Source of the DNA: Daphnia carinata
Lineage: Eukaryota
DNA length: 64,000 nucleotides
Direction: 5' to 3'
Assembly: GCF_022539665.2 (NCBI RefSeq)
Contig: NC_081331.1
Coordinates: forward strand, 2,108,001 to 2,172,000
Part shown: positions 6,287-51,919 of the stretch, piece by piece
How positions within the stretch are numbered: position 1 is the first letter of the stretch
Layout: every line of letters starts with the position of its first letter
Made by a program: the position numbers and the translations under genes
Notes under the pieces: model-generated
Seen by the model: only the letters and a program-made list of their open reading frames with translations
Told to the model about the DNA's origin: nothing
Databases searched by the model: none

Positions 6287-9170
6287 CTAATCCAGATGTA
6301 GGTGTTCTTGCATTTGGTCTGCCTCGTAACGTGGACCTATGACTTCGCCAACAGAAGGATCCCCGGAGGAAGAATGTAGTTGCGACCATAGAGTTTGGTG
6401 GCACATAGGGCAACGATCTTGCACGTACAACCTGCAGGACAAATAAAACATGGTTTCGACAGCTAAGATAACTTATAATAAATATACCATTTCCGTAGAC
6501 AGACAGCATGAAAGTAATGTCGGCACGGAGTTACTTTAACCATTACCTAATATGACAATGAAAGATATAGAAAGAATCAGAAAAATAAAAAATCATTAAC
6601 TTTACATTATTGGGGCCGTTGGGCTTCAGATCGTGAAAGCAAATCGCACAAACATCGTCCAATTGATCTAATTGATCGACGGTTTCAAGTGTAGCGATTT
6701 TATGAACAGCTGTTCTACGACGAGTGAAAATTTTCCACCCGACTCGTGCTTCGCACCACAAGTTGAAGTAAGCGTGCAGACCCACCAGAACGGCACGAAT
6801 TGCCCCACCACTTTCGAAAATCAATATGAAGGCAGAATTGCAAAGGAGGAACAAACCGACTAGAAACTCTACAACGCGACCAGCAAACCTGAAAGACAAA
6901 AAAAAAGGTAGTTTTAGGACAAGCCTTTGAACTAGCATGGTTGATTAATAACCGATGCCGGTAAGCTAATGGTAATGATATCTCTTTAGGACATGGGCCA
7001 TGTCCTTCTAAATGCCGAACAAAAAAACGGTTGAAAAAAGGCAGTAAAAACTAAGAAACGTGGCAACTTCTTTACTCGTAGGTTAGCACGATTGTCACGG
7101 AATTGGATTAAACCTTCATAAACAACCTTGACATGATTCCTACTGCTATTTCATGAATATAAAAAGGAATAAATCAAACGTGACACTGCGCAATCAAGAA
7201 ATTACGAACTCAATGATTTACTAGGCTACATAACCTATAACTGTAAAACCGTATTTGGTTGGAAGTTGAATGATTTCAATAGTTTAAGTTTCGATTTTCC
7301 CTTAGTAAGTAATTTATACCTGACACGGTAGACGTGATCATCTAGTTTATCCCAGAATTCGCTAAGCTTAGCGTCAGCCAGGAAAAGTCCATAGAGGGCA
7401 AGAGAGGCAAATACTTTGCATATAACTTCCAGGCTGAAACCGCTCACTGCCAATAGCCAAGTACTGATTGAATGAGTCAACCAGAGAAAGTATAGACCGC
7501 AAAATGCGACTACTGTAAGTCCAGCACTAACAGCCAACGCCCGCGCATGACGAGTCACATCGGGATTGGCACTGCAAAGTCAAATTAAAATGATGGAAGC
7601 CATATAATTTGTAAATAAAATAATAAAAACCTGGCAGCAAGGGACATCAAAACTGGATCGACTGCGTTATGTACAAAGTGCAAAAAGCAAGCCAAAAGAA
7701 GTACAATATTACGTCCTAAGCGGACGATACGAGCAGCTGGCTGCAAAGTGCTCAATCCATTTTGAAAGGCTAAGATTATAAATAGTACTGCAGAAACAGG
7801 TCCGACGTGGGAAACTTCGTCATGCGGAATCATTAAAAAGAGCTGACACATGACGTAGAACTGGAAGGCAAAAGATTACGTTTAACATATTATCCGTTAC
7901 ACAATAACGTATGTCTGATACCTTTCCGGCAAACCATGAGAAGATGGATGACATGCCCAAGATGGCAGGTAGGGTTTCACATCCTCGGATAAGCATGACT
8001 TTAAACAATGTTTTTAGGTTATCGCTTTCGGCCCAGACACCAGGCTCTGAGGAAACTACGTATATGTACAAATGAATTCCGACGCGGATCATCCAGAAAG
8101 TGCGGAAAATAAGTGGAACATTCAATCGGAGCCATTCTGCTTCGGCGAGCGCCATAAATCCTTCTGCCCGAATAAACGAAACCACATAAGAGATCCGATC
8201 CTTTATTTCTTTATAGACCTGAAGGAAGATGTCGATGGTTATTTTCACAGCCAAAAAAATTGTTAGAAACATAGTTTGTTTAGTGAAGTACCCTAAAATA
8301 TAGAAAGTATTTTGTACCATGGAAAAGTTGCTCCAAACCACACTTGCGATATGAAGTGAGAGGAGTAGAAAACACCAAAGAGGGAAAGGGTTTTTCTCCA
8401 GAGGAATCATCACAGTCAAACTAGGTACGAGAAAACTTAACGCCAGAAGTCCTTGCAATGCAGGAATTGACGGTCCGAAATTGACCACCAGATATCCAGA
8501 TGCCAACACTGACTGAGTGGCTATGTTACAAATGATAAAAAATAAGCCAGGAATCGCACGGAAAACGGCTTCCAGGTCGAGTCTCCATAGCGATCGAAAA
8601 GATAATGTAGTTGCTGTTGCTACACTAATGGAGGCTTGCTGGTTACAATGATAGCTGGCTGTTACAAGCAGCAACGAGAAAAGAAATTCATAGACTTTAA
8701 CAAGATGTTTTGTCCATAAAGTCAACGTAAACAATGCTGCACATGTTGCTGTAAAACAAACTAAATTAATAAACCTAAACAGAATAATATTTCTAAATAA
8801 GAAATAATTTACCAGAGAGCAAAAGAGCTAGTTGAAGGCTGAAGCCCAGAATTCCTTGACAAATAGAAATGTCGATGTTGAAGAATGTTGATGATGTGCC
8901 ATCAAATTCAATGACATTGATGAGGCTTTGACTCAGATTACCAAAGACTCCTGAATCATAGTTAGCTACTGAATGAAGTGGCCTTGATAATGTATGGTTT
9001 GAATCTCCCACAACATCATCAAAATCTGCCTCCTTGTGCAGAGGTAGAAGCGTGCAAGGATACAAACCAAGATCTGCTAAATTTGACTGGAATATTTCAT
9101 CAAGAATAAACAGGGACGGTACCCTGAGAAGAATATCTAAAAAGTTAAGAATGATTTGTTTGGTATCCAT
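6287..9170 (-). CDS. RNF139: TRC8/RNF139 (RNF145-like) multi-pass ER membrane RING-H2 E3 ligase, multi-exon
   Basis: LDILLRVPSLFILD N-terminus, many TM segments, EWLRLNVP, WDKLDDHVY, RING-H2 DDVCAICF...TPCRHYFHAVCLRKWLYVQDRCPMCH split over introns; TAG at 6287-6289. Confidence 0.9.
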
Positions 9171-12339: not shown

Positions 12340-13304
12340 TTTTCGTTGTTCGGAATCGCTCGGAAAAGGAAATCAGGTCACGTAGAGCTAGAAAAGAGCA
12401 AGCTACCGTCTAGTTTGGCATCGGTTAGCCGTTTTCTCTTCGTCTAATCATTGCAGGGGTGGAATTCTCGTGTTTTTGTTTTCTCTGTTTTGTTCAAACG
12501 ACGTTTCCACAACGTTGACGGTTTATAAGCTTTATTACTTCCGAAAACAGACAAAAATGAATCCATATGCCCTAAAGCGATACACCCTAAAAGGAAGTGT
12601 ATAAAACCCACAGATTTGAGACAAAAATGGCTGGGTGAGGAATTCGTTCCTCAGTTCAATCTGGAAACTGGTAATCGGAGAAGCTCAAGCTTCGTATAAA
12701 CAGCGTCACACTATGAAAGTTTGTAAGACCACACGTTTTAGTCTTATTCTTGAATATGCGGTTACTAACCTTATATTTGATTATTTGTGCATTCCACAGT
12801 CATCAATTCCATTGCGAAAATTCACCAAGTAATGTCGTCTGCATTACCATCTTCGGAGGTGGTGTTTGCGGTCATGATAGCCTCACTAGTGACATTACCG
12901 TCAGCACAGGTCATCGTGATGGTGTGTTTGTTATACGGTTGCTTGCAGTGCATTTCCATTATTGTGGTTCTCGGTGTTTCGCTGTATACAATTCCAATAA
13001 GGCTATGTACTTCTACCTACCGTGACGGCCATTCTAGCAGGCGATATCCACCCATTTTTCTGCCCCTTCGAGCTCGGCATGTTGACCAATTCATGGAGCG
13101 CGACGGCGCCAAACATCGCAATTTTCATTGACATTGACTTGTCAGTATAAAGACTCGCCCTGTGATCTCAACCAGTTTTATCCATCGCTTCCAACTCAAT
13201 ACATCGCACACATGAAGTTTAAGGTTGAAATGAAAATGTATTTCTTTTGCCACCAACCAATACATTGTTAGTATTCAGAACGAATGAATTAAACTTTTTT
13301 TCCA

Positions 13305-19980: not shown

Positions 19981-22010
<2,030 letters not shown>

Positions 22011-22909
22011 TTTGATTGTTAAGTTGAAAAAATGGGGTAAATCAGGAATTAAGAAGGTCTTCGGACGCAGAATGGCCTAACAAGGATGCCGTTCCGTGGT
22101 GAAGTGGTGAAATGTACTCAAACAGTAACCAATAAGTAAATTCTGATATTCGGCTGGACGACTATGATTGGTCGAACTACAAAAGTAACACTGTCACTGA
22201 TTGGCTGTTTTTCATCAGTAGTTGTCCTTTTTCCTTTTGAGGAAAAACGTAGCGCGAACCTTTGTTTCAACACCGTGGGTGGAAGAACCTTCACCAGCGT
22301 TAAAATTTTGTAGCGGAAGTGCTTGGCTATGACTGACGGCGATATACGCTGGACGACAAGTGATTTTCATGAAAAAGCTTGAAAAAGCCAAAATAATTTT
22401 CAGGATTTTGAAAATTTTGCCCTAAAACTGATTCTGTTCATTATGATTCAAAGCCAGTAAAATTCAATTAATCAATTCAAATAGATTCAGAGTTGGGCGA
22501 AAAGCACGGACTTTGGGGGATCAATACTTCGATTTGCCAAGCACAGTTTTTGGAACCATGACAAATTGTTCTGAATAAAGTAATTAATTTAATGGCAATG
22601 CAGCTAACTAATTGTTCTGTTCTTTGCCTCTTCTGTCTTGCACATAAACACTATATGCTGTGATATATGCTATGTTTTTTTCCTAATTATGATTAAATAC
22701 GGAGTTTTAAATTATAATTGTCGAAATGGAAATACAATTTCCGAGAAATAAAAACAAAAATCGAAGGCCTGGCAACAGTGCACTAGTTCCCCTGGGTGCG
22801 CTAAGGTATCAGCGTCCTTTTCAATAGAAGGCTGAAAAGGATAAAAGGCCCGGCTAAACGTGCTGATAATTCAATTTGAAATTTCTATTTGAATAGAGAA
22901 GTTCACGAA

Positions 22910-24098
22910 ATGGCACAAGCTGGTAAGTTAATATCTCATTTAAATATCTCTAGCTTGTGTTTTAAACATTTTTGATATTGTGTGCACGATGATGGATTAG
23001 ATTTTTATGGATATGTTTAACTTAGATGTGCAGTTCTGCAAAATGAGGAATGTTTCACGTGTGCATCCGTCATGGAGAACATTGCCTCAAGTTCCCAGCG
23101 TGTTTTGTCAGAAGATGAAGAAAATAAGCTGAAGAAACAGGACCAGACTTTAGTTTCTGAATTTAAGAGTATGAAATTGGAAGCTGAAGCCAAGAGAAAT
23201 TGGGATCTGTTCTACAAGCGGAATGATACAAGATTTTTCCGAGACAGACATTGGACGACTCGGGAGTTCGAACAATTGCTTGGAACTGGTGGCGAGGGAA
23301 AGAAAATTTTATTGGAAGTAGGTTGTGGAGTTGGGAATTTCCTATTTCCATTATTGGAGGAAAATGAAGACCTTTTCGTCTACGGATGCGATTTTTCACC
23401 GCGAGCTGTGGATTTTGTCAGGCGTGACTCGAGGTTCAACGCAGAACGGATGAATGTCTTCGTTAGTGATATAACCAAAGACAGGTAATGCATTTGTTTT
23501 TTCTATTTTGGTCTCCTTTAGCTATTATGATGATAAAATCCTATCTTAATGACTATGCAGAAAATTGGCATTTAGTCTTTCGCCCCTATCTGATAAATTA
23601 TGGATAATGATTTTCTTTGTTAGTTTGCCTCCATACTAAATATCTTCTGCTTTCTAGTTTAAGGGATTTTGTTCCTGAGATGGTTGATGTAGTCAGCCTC
23701 ATCTTTGTCTTATCAGCCATACATCCAGACAAATTCCTCCAGGCACTTTGCTCAGTTGCTTCAGTCCTTCATCCTGGTGGTGCCCTAATATTTCGAGACT
23801 ATGGCCTTTATGATATGGCTCAGCTTCGATTTGGGAGAGGGAATAAAATAAGTGATAACTTCTACGTCAGGCAGGATGGTACCAGGTAATTTATCTCTTG
23901 ATTCATGTCTTACATAGACTATATGTATTTACTTTTTTCAGATCATACTTTTTCTCTGTGGAGTATTTAAAGCAGTTGGTGACTGAGGCTGGATTTGAGG
24001 TTTTCACATGTCATTATGTAAATAGGAGAACCATCAACAAGAAGGAAGGGGTTGATGAGCCCAGGGTCTTCGTTCAGGGGAAGTTCATTAAAAAATGA
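22910..24098 (+). CDS. METTL6: tRNA m3C32 methyltransferase METTL6, 4 coding exons
   Basis: KRNWDLFYKRNDTRFFRDRHWTTREF, LEVGCGVGN, CDFSPRAV, IFVLSAIHP, FRDYGLYDMAQLRF, YVRQDGTRSYFF, RVFVQGKF. ATG 22910 is in frame using the acceptor at 23033; ATG 23072 is an alternative start. Confidence 0.93.
23522..23598 (+). ncRNA. SNORD80: C/D-box snoRNA, U80/snR60-like (28S guide), in METTL6 intron 23485-23657
   Basis: Box C ATGATGA 23527-33; box D CTGA 23590-93 preceded by TTAGTCTTTCGCCCCTAT, an 18-nt complement of conserved LSU rRNA ATAGGGGCGAAAGACTAA; D box 64 nt from the 3' splice site. Confidence 0.88.
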
Positions 24099-24129
24099 GG
24101 TGGGTGGGTATTTTTGCTACAACTATTTC

Positions 24130-24202
24130 TTTTTCTGATGATCCAAAATAATTTTCCCTGACATTCTGTGGAGGAAGCATGTATTAGCTCTAACTGAACA
24201 AT
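24130..24202 (+). ncRNA. SNORD44: C/D-box snoRNA, U44-like (18S guide), in intron 24100-24261 just after the METTL6 stop
   Basis: Box C (C)TGATGA 24135-41; GCATGTATTAGCTCTA 24177-92 complements SSU rRNA TAGAGCTAATACATGC; box D 24194-97; D+5 pairs with an A; 64 nt to the 3' splice site. Confidence 0.9.
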
Positions 24203-24337
24203 ACTGTTCAGTTTATACAACAGTGTTTCTTGCATTCTCTAAATTCTTGTTGTTTTTGTAGGTCTCACCGCGGCAGTGTTTCATTCGATTTTTTGAATTT
24301 TGAGGTAAACATACGCCTGAATTTTTATGAATTAAAA

Positions 24338-24400
24338 GCAAAATGATTATAATCTGCATAGGTCATCTGAATATTAGGAAGATATTTGCGTTCTGATTTC
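24338..24400 (+). ncRNA. Probable C/D-box snoRNA, U77-like with imperfect guide, in intron 24305-24463
   Basis: Box C-like ATGATTA 24343-49; GCATAGGTCA before D' CTGA 24367-70 (one mismatch to the complement of LSU TGAACTATGC); box D 24393-96, 67 nt from the 3' splice site. Confidence 0.55.
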
Positions 24401-24533
24401 ATTCTTGCTAGGGCTTGACTTATAAAGCTGCTTCACTATCTCTAACGATGTCTTTCTTGTTAGGTTCGGCGACTTTGGAGTGGGGGTTCATCTTCTAAGA
24501 GTAAATATTTGCCTGTCTTTCTTGCGTTACGCA

Positions 24534-24608
24534 GTGTTGTTGAATGATGATTATTATAATCATCTGAAAACAAAGGAAGAATATAAATAATTTGCCGATC
24601 TGAGGCAC
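24534..24608 (+). ncRNA. C/D-box snoRNA, family unassigned, in intron 24501-24671
   Basis: Box C ATGATGA 24544-50, D' CTGA 24564-67, box D 24600-03 preceded by TAATTTGCCGA (complement of LSU-type TCGGCAAATTA); GTGTT/GGCAC terminal stem; 68 nt to the 3' splice site. Confidence 0.75.
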
Positions 24609-24741
24609 AGAAAAACTTCCATTGTTTTGGTATATTTTGGATGTTGATGTAACCTCATCGTCTTATTGCAGGCGGTGTCGCAGGGGAGTTTCGTATTGTT
24701 ATAATGCAAGGTAAAACGCTTTTCACTCAGATCTTTTTTAA

Positions 24742-24828
24742 ACTGTAAATGATGGAATCCATATTTGCTACTCTTGACTGTTTGAATGACGACAGACTAG
24801 ACCACCAATCACCTTCTGATGTTGCAGT
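24742..24828 (+). ncRNA. SNORD76: C/D-box snoRNA, U76-like (28S guide), in intron 24711-24885
   Basis: Terminal stem ACTGTAA/TTGCAGT, box C ATGATGG, guide ATATTTGCTACT (complement of LSU AGTAGCAAATAT) before D' TTGA, C' ATGACGA, box D 24816-19, 66 nt to the 3' splice site. Confidence 0.88.
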
Positions 24829-25680
24829 GTTTTAGTTTTTATTGTCGTTGTATTCTTTGACTGACTGTTGACTTATCTTCTACAGGTTTGGCGGAATTGT
24901 ATACTGAATGCTGAAAAACTTTACTTTGGTCAATAAAAGTGTTAAAATGACGATTGATTTGTGTATTTTCATTTTCCGAAAATCTTATTATCAAGCACGT
25001 CTTGTTACACACGCAAAAGACGAAAAACCACAGATGCATTTGAAGAAAGATTAAAGGTTGCAATGAACGCCCACCACGATGTCTTCAATCGAGCGAAGGG
25101 GAATCGACATACTGGAATCTTAAGGCTACAATTTTCCATACTCGTTTTTTTACTAGTAGAAATTTGACACGAATTGTAAACTTCGAATGAAAAATAGTAT
25201 AGAGCCATAGGAAGCAAAATACAATAGCCAAGGTGGAAAACTTAATTTTATGCAGTAACGAATATGTGAATCGGTTAGGTCAGACAATTGTGAGGAGAGC
25301 GACGTCCGAGTGGTTCTCGCGAAAAAAGGAGAAAAAAGAAGTGTCTATATAACTCTGCCACAGTCCGCCAATGCCGTCGTAACGATTCGCATTAATATAA
25401 TGCAGAGAAATATTGACCGTAACACATATGAAGAGACAGAACTCGGTAAGGATTGTTGTATACTTTTCCAAGACGTAGTTACTCGGACGCGGGGGGAGGG
25501 GGTGAGAGAGGGAAAAACAACATACAATTGACGTTCGGTGACAGAAGAGTGTACGAATTGTCAAAATGATCCAACACGGATCAAGTCTGTGAAATTTGGG
25601 AGAAGAAGAAACAAGCAAAACGCAGCACTTCGTTGAAAAACAACCACTTAAATGTCTTTGTTTGTGAACTGCACAAAACG

Positions 25681-28422
25681 TCATTCTTGTTCCTCCAATT
25701 CATGCTGCAGACGAAGTTCGAGCTCCCTCATACCGTTTGCTATTCCCGTATCCTCATCGTCACCGGTGGTAATTGCCAAAGGGTCACTGAAACCGTTAAA
25801 GAATTTAACATCCCAGTCGAGTGTTGCTTTGCCGTGGACTGGCGTCGTCACGTTGCGACGTTTCCTTTGCGTCAATCTCAACTGGCGTTCCTTCTCGCGG
25901 ATGTTCTCTTCGATCAAGTGAAGCTCCCGTGATAATCGTTGGCGGCCTTCTGTCATGCATCCGATCGAAGCTTCGCGTGTCGCCATCTTGAGTTCGTCAA
26001 TCTGTTGCTTGATTAATTCCAGTTCGTATTTCATCCGCTCAGATTCCGCAAGGAAATCGGGCACGGGTTCCACCGCGGGTGGCACCGAGTCGCCTTTAGA
26101 CTCCTGGCCATCACCGTCTTCTTCGTCTTGTCCCTCATTCCAATCATCCAAGTCACGACCGGTGGAAATCAGTGGGGTTCGCTTCATGGGTGTTGACGTG
26201 AGCGAATGGCCAAAGGAGGACGCCGCCTGGATCGGGTTGGACGGTCGTGGGATGATCCTTGAAAGACGCGATATTGGGCCGTATTTGCTACAAATGGGTG
26301 CGCCAAATGGGATGAAATCATCATCAAACAATCCTTCTGCCCTATTATAACCAGTGGCGCCTTGAGCCGAGGCTGCTGCTGCTGCTGCTGCAGGTCGTCC
26401 ATTCCAAATGGAACTATTCTGACTGTTGGTAGTGCCAATCTTTTCCAGTTGGTCTAAAATTTCTTGCTTACGACTCTGCAAGACGACCAAACTTTGGCTG
26501 GCCAGCGATGGAATCAAGCGAGCTGTTTCGATGGGTCGACTGGGATAGTCGGCCATAGGGGCCTGCATTCCGTATTCAGGTTGCGGCGGAAGAGAAGGCG
26601 CTCCGTAGAGATGCGGTCCAGCGCCATAAGTCGGAGGGGGCGGAGTTGGATAGGCACTGGCTCCGTACTGTCCGCGTGAACGGTAAGGAGCGTGAGTGGC
26701 AGTGTAAGGCGGGCCGCTGTAATTGGGACGTCGGCTCAACATGGCTGTGCCGTCCGCTGGAGCTGGGTTATAATAAAAACTGGTTGGGTCCGTCTCGGTA
26801 ATCATGGCGATTCCGGCTGCGTCGACGCCAACTACCAGATTCTCCTGAGAACCGAGACTTCCTTCGCCTGTTCCATTCCTGAGTTTGCCAGAATTCTTCC
26901 GGTGTCGTGACCTGTACCTGTCCAGCTCCTCCTCCGAGTGGGCAAATGTACAGTTGGCTCCGCGAGGGCAGCCGCCGCGAAGTAAATCGCGACACAAGCT
27001 CGTCTTGTACTTGATGCCATGTGATCCGTGGGCAGCTTGCTCCGATTGTCGACCATTGGATCTACTTCCTCCTCCGTGTGACGAAACAAAATCAATGAGA
27101 CCTCGGACGGCCATTCGAGCCGCTTCTAAGGCTCCATCGCATTCTGACCAGCTAGGGAGAGCGGCATCCGGACTGGGGTCGAGGGCAGCAAGTAGTTCCA
27201 GACTAGGTCGCAAATTGGACAGATTGTGCGGATCGCCCGTTCGTTGCAGAGCGATGACAAGCTCTTGCACCGATTGACCGAACGATTGTGGTGTTTGTAG
27301 TTTGTCGATGATACTCTGCATGTGCGATTTGTGGGCCGAATCGCCGTACAACAACGACGACCACTGGTCGGGGGCGATCCTCAGACCGGCCTCGGTAGCT
27401 ATTTGCACAATCTGGGCGTCGTGTTCGCGTCGTAGGGCGTCATAAGTCCTAAATTCATCTTTCAGTTGCATCAATGAAGAATCGCCTTCTCTTTTGGATA
27501 CTGAAAATAAATAAAAGAATTCTTTAAACATTGAACCAAGGTTTCATTTGAAGGTTTACCTTTGAAACATGAGGCACGATAGAGAAGCTGGACGACGTGG
27601 CCAATGCTCGTCTTGGAAGCTTGTGGAAAATGGGGTTCCAGTCGCTGAACAACAAACATGACGAGAACTTTACGTGATAAGGCCGATCCGTCTTCCAAGG
27701 CGAGCAGAACAAGTCGCAGCACCTCCTCTTGCATAGCCGGACCGAGAAACTGACAACCGCGAGCCCGGACAGCTGCCCAAAGGTTGGCAGAGAGTTGTTG
27801 CGGATTCTGGTGTTGAAGTATGAGCTCGGTGACAGTTCGTTCACCTAAAGAGCGAGCTGCCCGGACGGCCCTGGCCCGTCCTTCCGATTCGGCGAGTTGG
27901 CAAGTGACCAAAGTCACCAATTTGCGTTGCATGGGACGCGAGAGGAGAGGCACGCCTCCGCTAATTTTCAGGAAGAGAGCAAGCTCCTCGACGCAGCGTC
28001 GACTGGAACGGTACAACTGCCATTGTTCCTTGTCCAGGGAAGATAACAAAGTCGTCGTTGACTGTAATTCTTCTTCCATAGGCTGATCTTCTTCGTGATT
28101 ATCTTCATGGTGATCGCTGTTGTGGTGGACACTAGAAGGCGAGATCAGTTGTAACAGGGCTGTATTGACGGGCAAGTCTTCAGCTTCGATACTGACACTG
28201 CTTTGGTCAAATGGACATTGTCGACGATGCAGCTTTGCAAGGCATGTCTAGAACAGTGTTCAGGTTAAATATATAATTGCATAAACACATAACTAACAAA
28301 AATACCTTGCAGAGAGTGTGCCCGCATGCGAGGCTGATGGGTTGACGCTGGATGCGGTCAAATTCGTGTCGGCAGATGGGACAAGAAAGGAATTCAGTCC
28401 ACTGAGGAGCTTGAATGGGCAT
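25681..28422 (-). CDS. RC3H1: Roquin (RING, ROQ and CCCH zinc-finger RNA-binding protein), 3 coding exons
   Basis: [24 protein letters not shown] domain ([47 protein letters not shown]); [13 protein letters not shown]...[20 protein letters not shown] motif. Confidence 0.96.
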
Positions 28423-51500: not shown

Positions 51501-51919
51501 TTATGGGAAGAAGAGGGAAAACCAGTTTTTCAAATAAAGGTGGCTACTTTCACTAAAGATTTGATTTCAACACAACTTTAATAACAGTTGCCTAAAAGCT
51601 AATTGAATAGATTACCTGAACCATTTTTCGTTAAGCCATCCATACCTGATCCTAAGCCGAGCCATCAAAACAAGATATGTAACAAGTTTGGCAGCATCAT
51701 TAAAGACATTTGAAGATAAAATACGTAACGAGTAGTCGTGAACACGAAATTAAGGAAATTAGAGTATGAAAATGCAGAAAAACAAAATCAATGAAAAGAC
51801 TTCTACGAAGAAAGTTAGAAAGTAAAACAACCTGCTGATTTACCTACCAGTCTTTCGCTAATAATTTAAGCGTTGGTAAAAAAAAAATTGTGGCTTTTGG
51901 TTAATTGCAAGACAGATAT

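Follow-up and report, generated by a model that had tools for sequence, protein, structure and literature searches.

The METTL6 gene of Daphnia carinata is very probably a protein-coding gene that hosts five intronic box C/D small nucleolar RNAs (snoRNAs), one (unit 1) in an intron of its coding region and four (units 2-5) in introns that lie past its stop codon between tiny non-coding exons. The gene is on the forward strand of the stretch of DNA analysed here (the window: 64,000 nucleotides (nt) of contig NC_081331.1, positions 2,108,001 to 2,172,000; positions below are those of the window, on the + strand unless stated otherwise). Judged by sequence the gene is the METTL6 ortholog: its protein has methyltransferase Pfam domains and sequence orthology to the METTL6 transfer RNA (tRNA) 3-methylcytidine (m3C) methyltransferases, and in a protein comparison positions 23036-23482 are 100% identical to a Daphnia carinata METTL6-like protein (P0001), so that the host named in a preliminary description of this DNA was correct. 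The exon 2 protein is 93% identical to that of D. magna, 90% to D. sinensis and 77% to D. pulicaria.

The four coding exons, 22910-22922 (the coding part of exon 1, predicted, with its ATG at 22910), 23034-23484 (exon 2), 23658-23885 (exon 3, placed by the open frame and by contigs of a relative described below) and 23942-24099 (the last), join into an open frame of 282 amino acids. Its C-terminal part is the complete P0001 protein, whose start is the second methionine, inside exon 2; the ATG of the window lies in exon 1. The donor at 24100 begins one nt past the end of the METTL6 stop codon (24096-24098), and the same stop-plus-one-base donor is present in a second daphniid METTL6 locus (L003, below), so in both genomes the last coding exon itself has neither a 3' untranslated region (UTR) nor a poly(A) signal. 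Beyond it lie non-coding exons of 43 nt (24262-24304), 37 nt (24464-24500) and 39 nt (24672-24710; predicted from splice signals, with a similar-sized exon at the same place in L003) and a predicted last exon (24886-24937) that has AATAAA at 24932 and overlaps the 3' end of a convergent gene; this is the series of tiny exons past the stop, ending at that AATAAA, that had been described previously.

Among the seven METTL6 introns, numbers 2, 4, 5, 6 and 7 (23485-23657, 173 nt; 24100-24261, 162 nt; 24305-24463, 159 nt; 24501-24671, 171 nt; and 24711-24885, 175 nt) each contain one C...D unit, and the two others are 111 and 56 nt long. Units 1-5 (23527-23593, 24135-24197, 24343-24396, 24544-24603 and 24749-24819, respectively) have C and D boxes 50-100 nt apart and D'/C' boxes between them, and the ends of their D boxes lie 64, 64, 67, 68 and 66 nt from the 3' splice site, the range of 64-68 nt that had been claimed for five introns with one unit each. 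The best distance for intronic C/D snoRNAs is about 65-70 nt. A scan of the 64-kb window for this anatomy (a C box, a D box and an acceptor 62-71 nt beyond) matched the D boxes of units 1-5 and nothing else on the + strand, plus a single site on the − strand; when the + strand was shuffled locally 200 times, there were 0.275 matches on average and never more than 2. The scan was defined after the units had been seen, so it is partly circular and the contrast is overstated. In a control scan a C...D pair also turned up on the − strand at ~12348-12451 (reverse-complement positions 51550-51628); 13 nt of it are complementary to one large subunit (LSU) sequence, and it is probably a chance occurrence.

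Rfam recognizes none of the five units at its gathering score. A scan of the whole window gave no match at that level, contrary to the preliminary description's expectation of the SNORD44, SNORD76, SNORD77 and snR60/SNORD80 models; the first three did not appear for the window units at all, and snR60_Z15 appeared only below threshold. The sub-threshold scores were 38.1 bits for unit 5 with SNORD24 (RF00069; E 5.6e-4) and 34.3 and 25.8 bits for unit 1 and the D' half of unit 3, respectively, with snR60_Z15 (RF00309; E 5.6e-3 and 0.51), all against a cut-off of 41; unit 4 gave snR61 at E 3.6, and unit 2 had no match in the window scan even below threshold. Standard Rfam annotation thus overlooks all five units. 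The evidence from pairing and conservation given below nonetheless supports the view that they are real intronic C/D snoRNA genes.

Guide pairing was measured against 60 loci fetched with the unit-1 guide (Rfam confirmed eukaryotic ribosomal RNA (rRNA) in seven of the nine checked), and the rRNA in all of the comparisons that follow is not from Daphnia. The D guide of unit 1 forms 18 unbroken Watson-Crick pairs with LSU rRNA (a circular result, the loci having been fetched by that guide; the context of the match is LSU rRNA), the D guide of unit 2 forms 16 pairs with small subunit (SSU) rRNA in two loci and 15 plus one GU pair in two more, and the D' guide of unit 5 forms 12 unbroken pairs with eukaryotic LSU rRNA, in agreement with the rRNA complements of 12-18 nt earlier ascribed to three guides. 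Register analysis in one rRNA locus (L153) gave target bases LSU A818, G909 and A1451 and SSU A162, which are yeast A817, G908 and A1449 and human 18S A166, sites for which Table S4 of PMC11014333 gives SNORD77/80, SNORD80, SNORD76 and SNORD44, respectively. The +5 bases of units 1, 2 and 5 fall on known methylated sites, namely yeast Gm908/human Gm1612 (U80, snR60 type), human SSU Am166 (U44 type) and yeast Am1449/human Am2350/fly A1691 (U76 type), so the suggested resemblance to U80, U44 and U76 holds by target site, and these three units are predicted to guide 2'-O-methylation there. A further 8-nt element of unit 5 is conserved and is the complement of the rRNA immediately upstream of the target site, where it may provide accessory pairing.

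The D' guide of unit 3 aligns to the LSU site yeast Am817/human Am1521, which is that of U77, as had been tentatively proposed; its +5 base is a G where a U is required, and this G is mismatched to 42 of 44 rRNA copies (in copies with intact flanks the base is A in 42, G in one, U in one and never C). The guide is kept in L003 and so is its +5 G, so either daphniid rRNA differs here or the guide does something else; rRNA variants able to pair with this G were sought by motif, which returned 94 loci, none of them in an rRNA context. The 13-nt D guide of unit 4, identical in L003, has a best pairing of 10 Watson-Crick and two GU pairs, which is a good fit with few of the rRNAs compared, and its target G maps to yeast LSU G1906 (eight of eight anchor bases), the equivalent of which is its predicted target. 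This register test placed the unit 4 guide there and not at the SNORD6 site (Gm2411). Rows 129-131 of Table S4 in PMC11014333 have no entry at yeast G1906 for fly, human, yeast, Arabidopsis, Xenopus or Dictyostelium. Units 3 and 4 are paralogs, as their four cross pairs in the two genomes gave z values of 3.3, 7.1, 4.9 and 8.0 compared with ≤2.8 for other non-orthologous pairs, and each has kept a different guide; they probably arose by a tandem duplication after which each copy retained one guide.

That the units past the stop codon belong to METTL6 is indicated by RNA contigs of a relative (~89% identical over exon 2), assembled from seven of its ten matching runs, which contain 5-6% of the sequence words; such contigs are not single molecules. 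Introns 2 (which holds unit 1) and 3 are absent from the contigs in four of four runs. A joint from 24097 to 24260 (a skip of 162 nt with GT..AG ends) occurs in runs X1 and X7, and the end of the coding exon stands just before 24260 in X4, X7 and X8, so that with X1 the junction between the last coding exon and the first non-coding exon is found in four of the seven runs. A homolog of the second non-coding exon follows the first, after 24306, as a loose end in at least four of the seven (X1, X6, X2 and X8), and judged by length one contig each in X1 and X8 spans the coding region from exon 2 to this second exon. The last coding exon is thus spliced to the first two non-coding exons in the relative, which identifies METTL6 as the host and supports a single transcription unit for METTL6 and these two exons. 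The claim of a shared transcription unit stands to that extent; the last two junctions were not seen in the contigs, none of which covered the unit-5 intron, and this is an absence of cover and not counter-evidence.

The cluster was followed in other METTL6 genes by comparing the best 80 of 423 confirmed METTL6-like loci and by a quick protein tree whose support values are those of the Shimodaira-Hasegawa-like approximate likelihood ratio test (SH-aLRT) only. Among these 80 loci the window guides were found in three, L003, L029 and L018; most others of the 80 are intronless, transcript-like or non-animal. L003, which the tree places as the sister of four named Daphnia proteins (SH-aLRT 93), keeps all five units, each with its D box 65-70 nt from the acceptor; units 3 and 4 have changed places. 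Its unit bodies are 78-90% identical to those of the window, as against 51-64% for the 3' flanks and 50-51% for the spacer exons; for unit 2 the values are 90% for the body and 57% for the flank. L003 has two U76-type copies of unit 5 (90% identical). The second of them (L003:906-976) sits in METTL6 coding intron 3, which in the window is just 56 nt long and empty; the difference is a recent gain or loss in the Daphniidae. Unit 1 is also present in L029, which neighbours D. pulicaria in the tree and whose sequence stops soon after that unit.

L018 groups with three close relatives among insect METTL6 proteins (support 85-89). It has a donor 43 nt past the METTL6 stop, then a C/D unit (7677-7753) and then a U44-type unit (8411-8460) with a 7-bp terminal stem, in which 16 of the 17 bases of guide plus D box are common with unit 2 and which Rfam scores as snoZ102_R77 (E 9.6e-4; 36.5 bits, cut-off 40). 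Such a match to unit 2 among the 307,794 bases of the 80 loci is unlikely by chance, and a U44-type snoRNA was probably hosted by METTL6 already before the daphniid/insect split. The insect-clade locus is without the intron that hosts unit 1 and has a different first unit. That unit (L018:7677-7753 and L014:7682-7758), which has perfect boxes and lies in the first intron past the METTL6 stop, has no good complement in the rRNAs compared, and its best Rfam match is E 8.2. A sequence model of units 3 and 4, run over 19 sources, recovered just its four training copies and no homolog in 17 other METTL6 loci.

The most likely model from these observations is the following. A single RNA polymerase II transcript, which perhaps begins at the pyrimidine-rich sequence at 22817 (a weak candidate start, below), would be spliced through all seven introns, and the five released introns that bear units would be debranched and trimmed to snoRNAs that guide rRNA 2'-O-methylation. 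Debranching and trimming of released introns is the usual origin of intronic C/D snoRNAs. The model predicts that the snoRNAs are released and stable, that the U80, U44 and U76 sites are methylated, and that the last two junctions are used. The exons past the stop would serve as spacers, so that every snoRNA has a separate intron with its D box ~65-70 nt from the 3' splice site; these exons are without conserved sequence, and their role is probably to define introns. Transcription is the level at which the earlier proposal that the locus couples rRNA guides to a tRNA-modifying enzyme finds support. The junctions lie 44, 81 and 120 nt past the stop, so the last two, which are predicted, exceed 55 nt. 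In mammals junctions more than 55 nt past a stop trigger decay, and flies ignore such junction marks in decay. The spliced RNA of GAS5, which has a 5' terminal oligopyrimidine (5'TOP) start, undergoes nonsense-mediated decay. If decay acts here, the METTL6 gene could yield much snoRNA and little enzyme, as has been proposed for human hosts (PMC4233243).

Several points weigh against a functional five-snoRNA METTL6 host. Besides the empty Rfam scan at gathering score, the unit 3 mismatch at +5 and the fit of unit 4 to few rRNAs, the C boxes of units 2, 3 and 5 are non-canonical (one base off) and terminal stems are short or absent in units 1, 2 and 3. The RNA status of the relative's runs is a tool's guess, none being recorded as RNA, and the relative is only ~89% identical; its contigs still contain the unit-4 intron in all seven runs, the unit-2 intron in three and the unit-3 intron likewise in three, so that these introns are incompletely removed. 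In human cells, multi-snoRNA hosts typically show retained introns (PMC4233243). L018 represents one insect lineage, and its U44-type unit is linked to METTL6 by position and not by RNA. The sub-threshold Rfam scores, the C boxes and the unit 3 mismatch would be expected if the units were decayed or chance box motifs without function. We think this very improbable indeed in view of the selective conservation of unit bodies and spacing, the long rRNA complements and five anatomy matches, far above shuffles. The downstream exons might instead belong to an independent non-coding host gene that has its own promoter and into which METTL6 reads only sometimes; the missing view of the last two junctions and the composite nature of contigs leave room for this. 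A donor one nt past the stop in two genomes, with a coding exon that lacks a 3' UTR and poly(A) signal, the location of unit 1 and the extra L003 copy in coding introns, and the single contigs of X1 and X8 that reach from exon 2 to the second spacer exon all argue against a separate host gene, and we regard it as improbable.

The 5' end of the METTL6 gene is less well marked. A candidate pyrimidine-rich start of the TCT or 5'TOP type lies at 22816-22822, with +1 at 22817; it is an exact consensus match 48 nt past an 8-nt element, and L029 has a one-mismatch version of the consensus at the same 48-nt spacing from that element. A second exact match at 22628 counts against this start, as it shows that such words occur by chance. 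The relative's contig extends ~100 letters upstream of exon 2. Upstream of METTL6, 21602-22370 on the − strand belongs to a divergent tubulin gene (Pfam Tubulin on its first coding stretch; presumably of the alpha type) in which an intron directly follows the ATG. The segment 22050-22370 folds no better than shuffles; it is conserved, contains CCAAT-type words, is covered by contigs, and is read as the tubulin gene's 5' and promoter region. Downstream, a convergent gene occupies 24925-26499 on the − strand with its 3' end adjoining or overlapping that of METTL6; its long 3' UTR shows strong conservation in L003, its poly(A) site is marked in one run by a loose end of poly(T) at 24948, and it has no Pfam match, although we take it to resemble the C-terminus of roquin. 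Viral collections searched for rRNA gave only fragments, and one contig from them opens with a eukaryotic LSU rRNA fragment (L081:1-120) and is likely a chimera.

How old is the grouping of these snoRNAs? GAS5 has ten snoRNAs that include U44, U76, U77 and U80 (PMC10743478, PMC6789762), and a chicken gas5-like host has U44, U76 and two U80 copies; U77 is thought to be derived from U80 (PMC2653536), so the overlap of METTL6 with GAS5 is one of three independent families and not four. The preliminary description had proposed that the grouping predates the protostome/deuterostome split. Inheritance of U44, U76 and U77/U80 together from the bilaterian ancestor, with GAS5 as host in vertebrates and METTL6 in daphniids, has in our estimate slightly less than an even chance of being correct. 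All three nameable independent families are among the nine GAS5 families, for which a rough calculation gives a chance of 0.0005-0.001 for three of three, or 0.017-0.026 given one member and an unassigned unit; the family totals of 80-100 used there are an estimate, and the number of multi-snoRNA hosts per genome is ignored. The presence of U44, U76 and U80 together in the chicken host and the U44-type unit behind insect-clade METTL6 also favour this origin. Drosophila does not, as its counterparts are spread over at least five hosts with none together (U76 in Uhg1 and RpL28, Gm1108 in Nop60B, Am1017 in Uhg5, U74 in Uhg3 and U79 in Uhg7), and the tables of that study list no Drosophila guide for the U44 site (PMC11014333). 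In favour of the proposal are an overlap that is unlikely by chance on this rough count and the insect-clade unit, and the Drosophila dispersal weighs against it. Six GAS5 families are absent from METTL6, and the order of units is unlike GAS5 and differs between the window and L003. The gene symbol CG34195 is, we assume, that of Drosophila METTL6. Neither CG34195 nor Mettl6 occurs anywhere in the PMC11014333 supplement, and host switches are common (PMC2655684).

It is an even bet, in our judgment, that the cluster was instead assembled within Pancrustacea by snoRNAs entering a well-expressed host, the guides it has in common with GAS5 being widely conserved ones that coincide by chance. Within Daphniidae a copy was gained, the order changed and a unit was duplicated, the counterparts are dispersed in Drosophila, the insect locus differs in its first unit and has no unit-1 intron, none of the 17 other METTL6 loci has a unit 3/4 homolog, and guides of these types are found in fungi too (PMC2780460). 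The chance estimate, with three of three nameable families in one vertebrate host, speaks against such a late assembly. The hosts compared were vertebrate GAS5, those of Drosophila, and daphniid and insect-clade METTL6. A broader combination is possible and we hold it only tentatively: that U44, U76 and U77/U80 have been together since the bilaterian ancestor with METTL6 as their old pancrustacean host, which would be the first invertebrate trace of GAS5, that the rRNA methylation guided by unit 4 is one not known from six model species, and that unit 3 tracks a Daphnia rRNA base change at a normally invariant methylated adenosine.

Non-coding multi-snoRNA hosts cannot be aligned, so that their early history is difficult to follow; METTL6 is a conserved protein gene, so as a carrier it lets the cluster be traced across animals and makes the age of the GAS5 grouping testable. 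The locus is also a compact case of a coding messenger RNA (mRNA) with four 3' UTR introns that would be kept only to carry snoRNAs; these introns raise the question of how nonsense-mediated decay is avoided or exploited by METTL6 mRNA. Knocking out METTL6 in Daphnia could remove rRNA guides as well as the enzyme.

Among single snoRNAs, unit 2 has the same D guide to SSU A166 as SNORD44 (U44) and snoZ102_R77 (RF00359), and by eye a 15-nt word of it is common with the human U44 primer in PMC10743478. Unit 5 shares the target A of its D' guide with SNORD24 (RF00069)/U76 and with fly snoRNA:U76:54E, differing from SNORD24 in that the U24 D guide is out of register; the fly U76 copies are in Uhg1. 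The Rfam family snosnR60_Z15 (RF00309; yeast snR60, vertebrate U80/U77) has both guides on one RNA, whereas in the window they are split, the D guide being on unit 1 and the D' half being resembled by unit 3. Among hosts, TAF1D carries its snoRNAs in 3' UTR introns. Human TAF1D and EIF5 (PMC4233243) and Drosophila Nop60B (PMC11014333, Table S6) are likewise protein-coding snoRNA carriers; compared with these, METTL6 has four of its five units in 3' UTR introns between exons of 37-43 nt. In the literature searched, which left out most subscription papers and Daphnia genome annotations, METTL6 was nowhere described as a snoRNA host, and no GAS5-like cluster was reported from an invertebrate; multi-snoRNA hosts are a known kind, and METTL6 as one of them is apparently new. 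By the tests run the locus is not a GAS5 ortholog. GAS5 is non-coding, whereas METTL6 encodes an intact, conserved 282-amino acid protein and is spliced to its spacer exons; GAS5 has ten units and METTL6 five, with three to four of the ten matched by target site, none of the U47, U74, U75, U78, U79 or U81 type, no GAS5 counterpart of unit 4 and a different snoRNA order; and, in the two adjacent genes compared, GAS5 lies with DARS2 and ZBTB37 in mammals and METTL6 lies between tubulin and a gene without a Pfam match. With one C/D snoRNA per intron, short and poorly conserved exons, guides of the U44, U76, U77 and U80 types and possibly a pyrimidine-rich start, the METTL6 locus nevertheless appears to work like GAS5.

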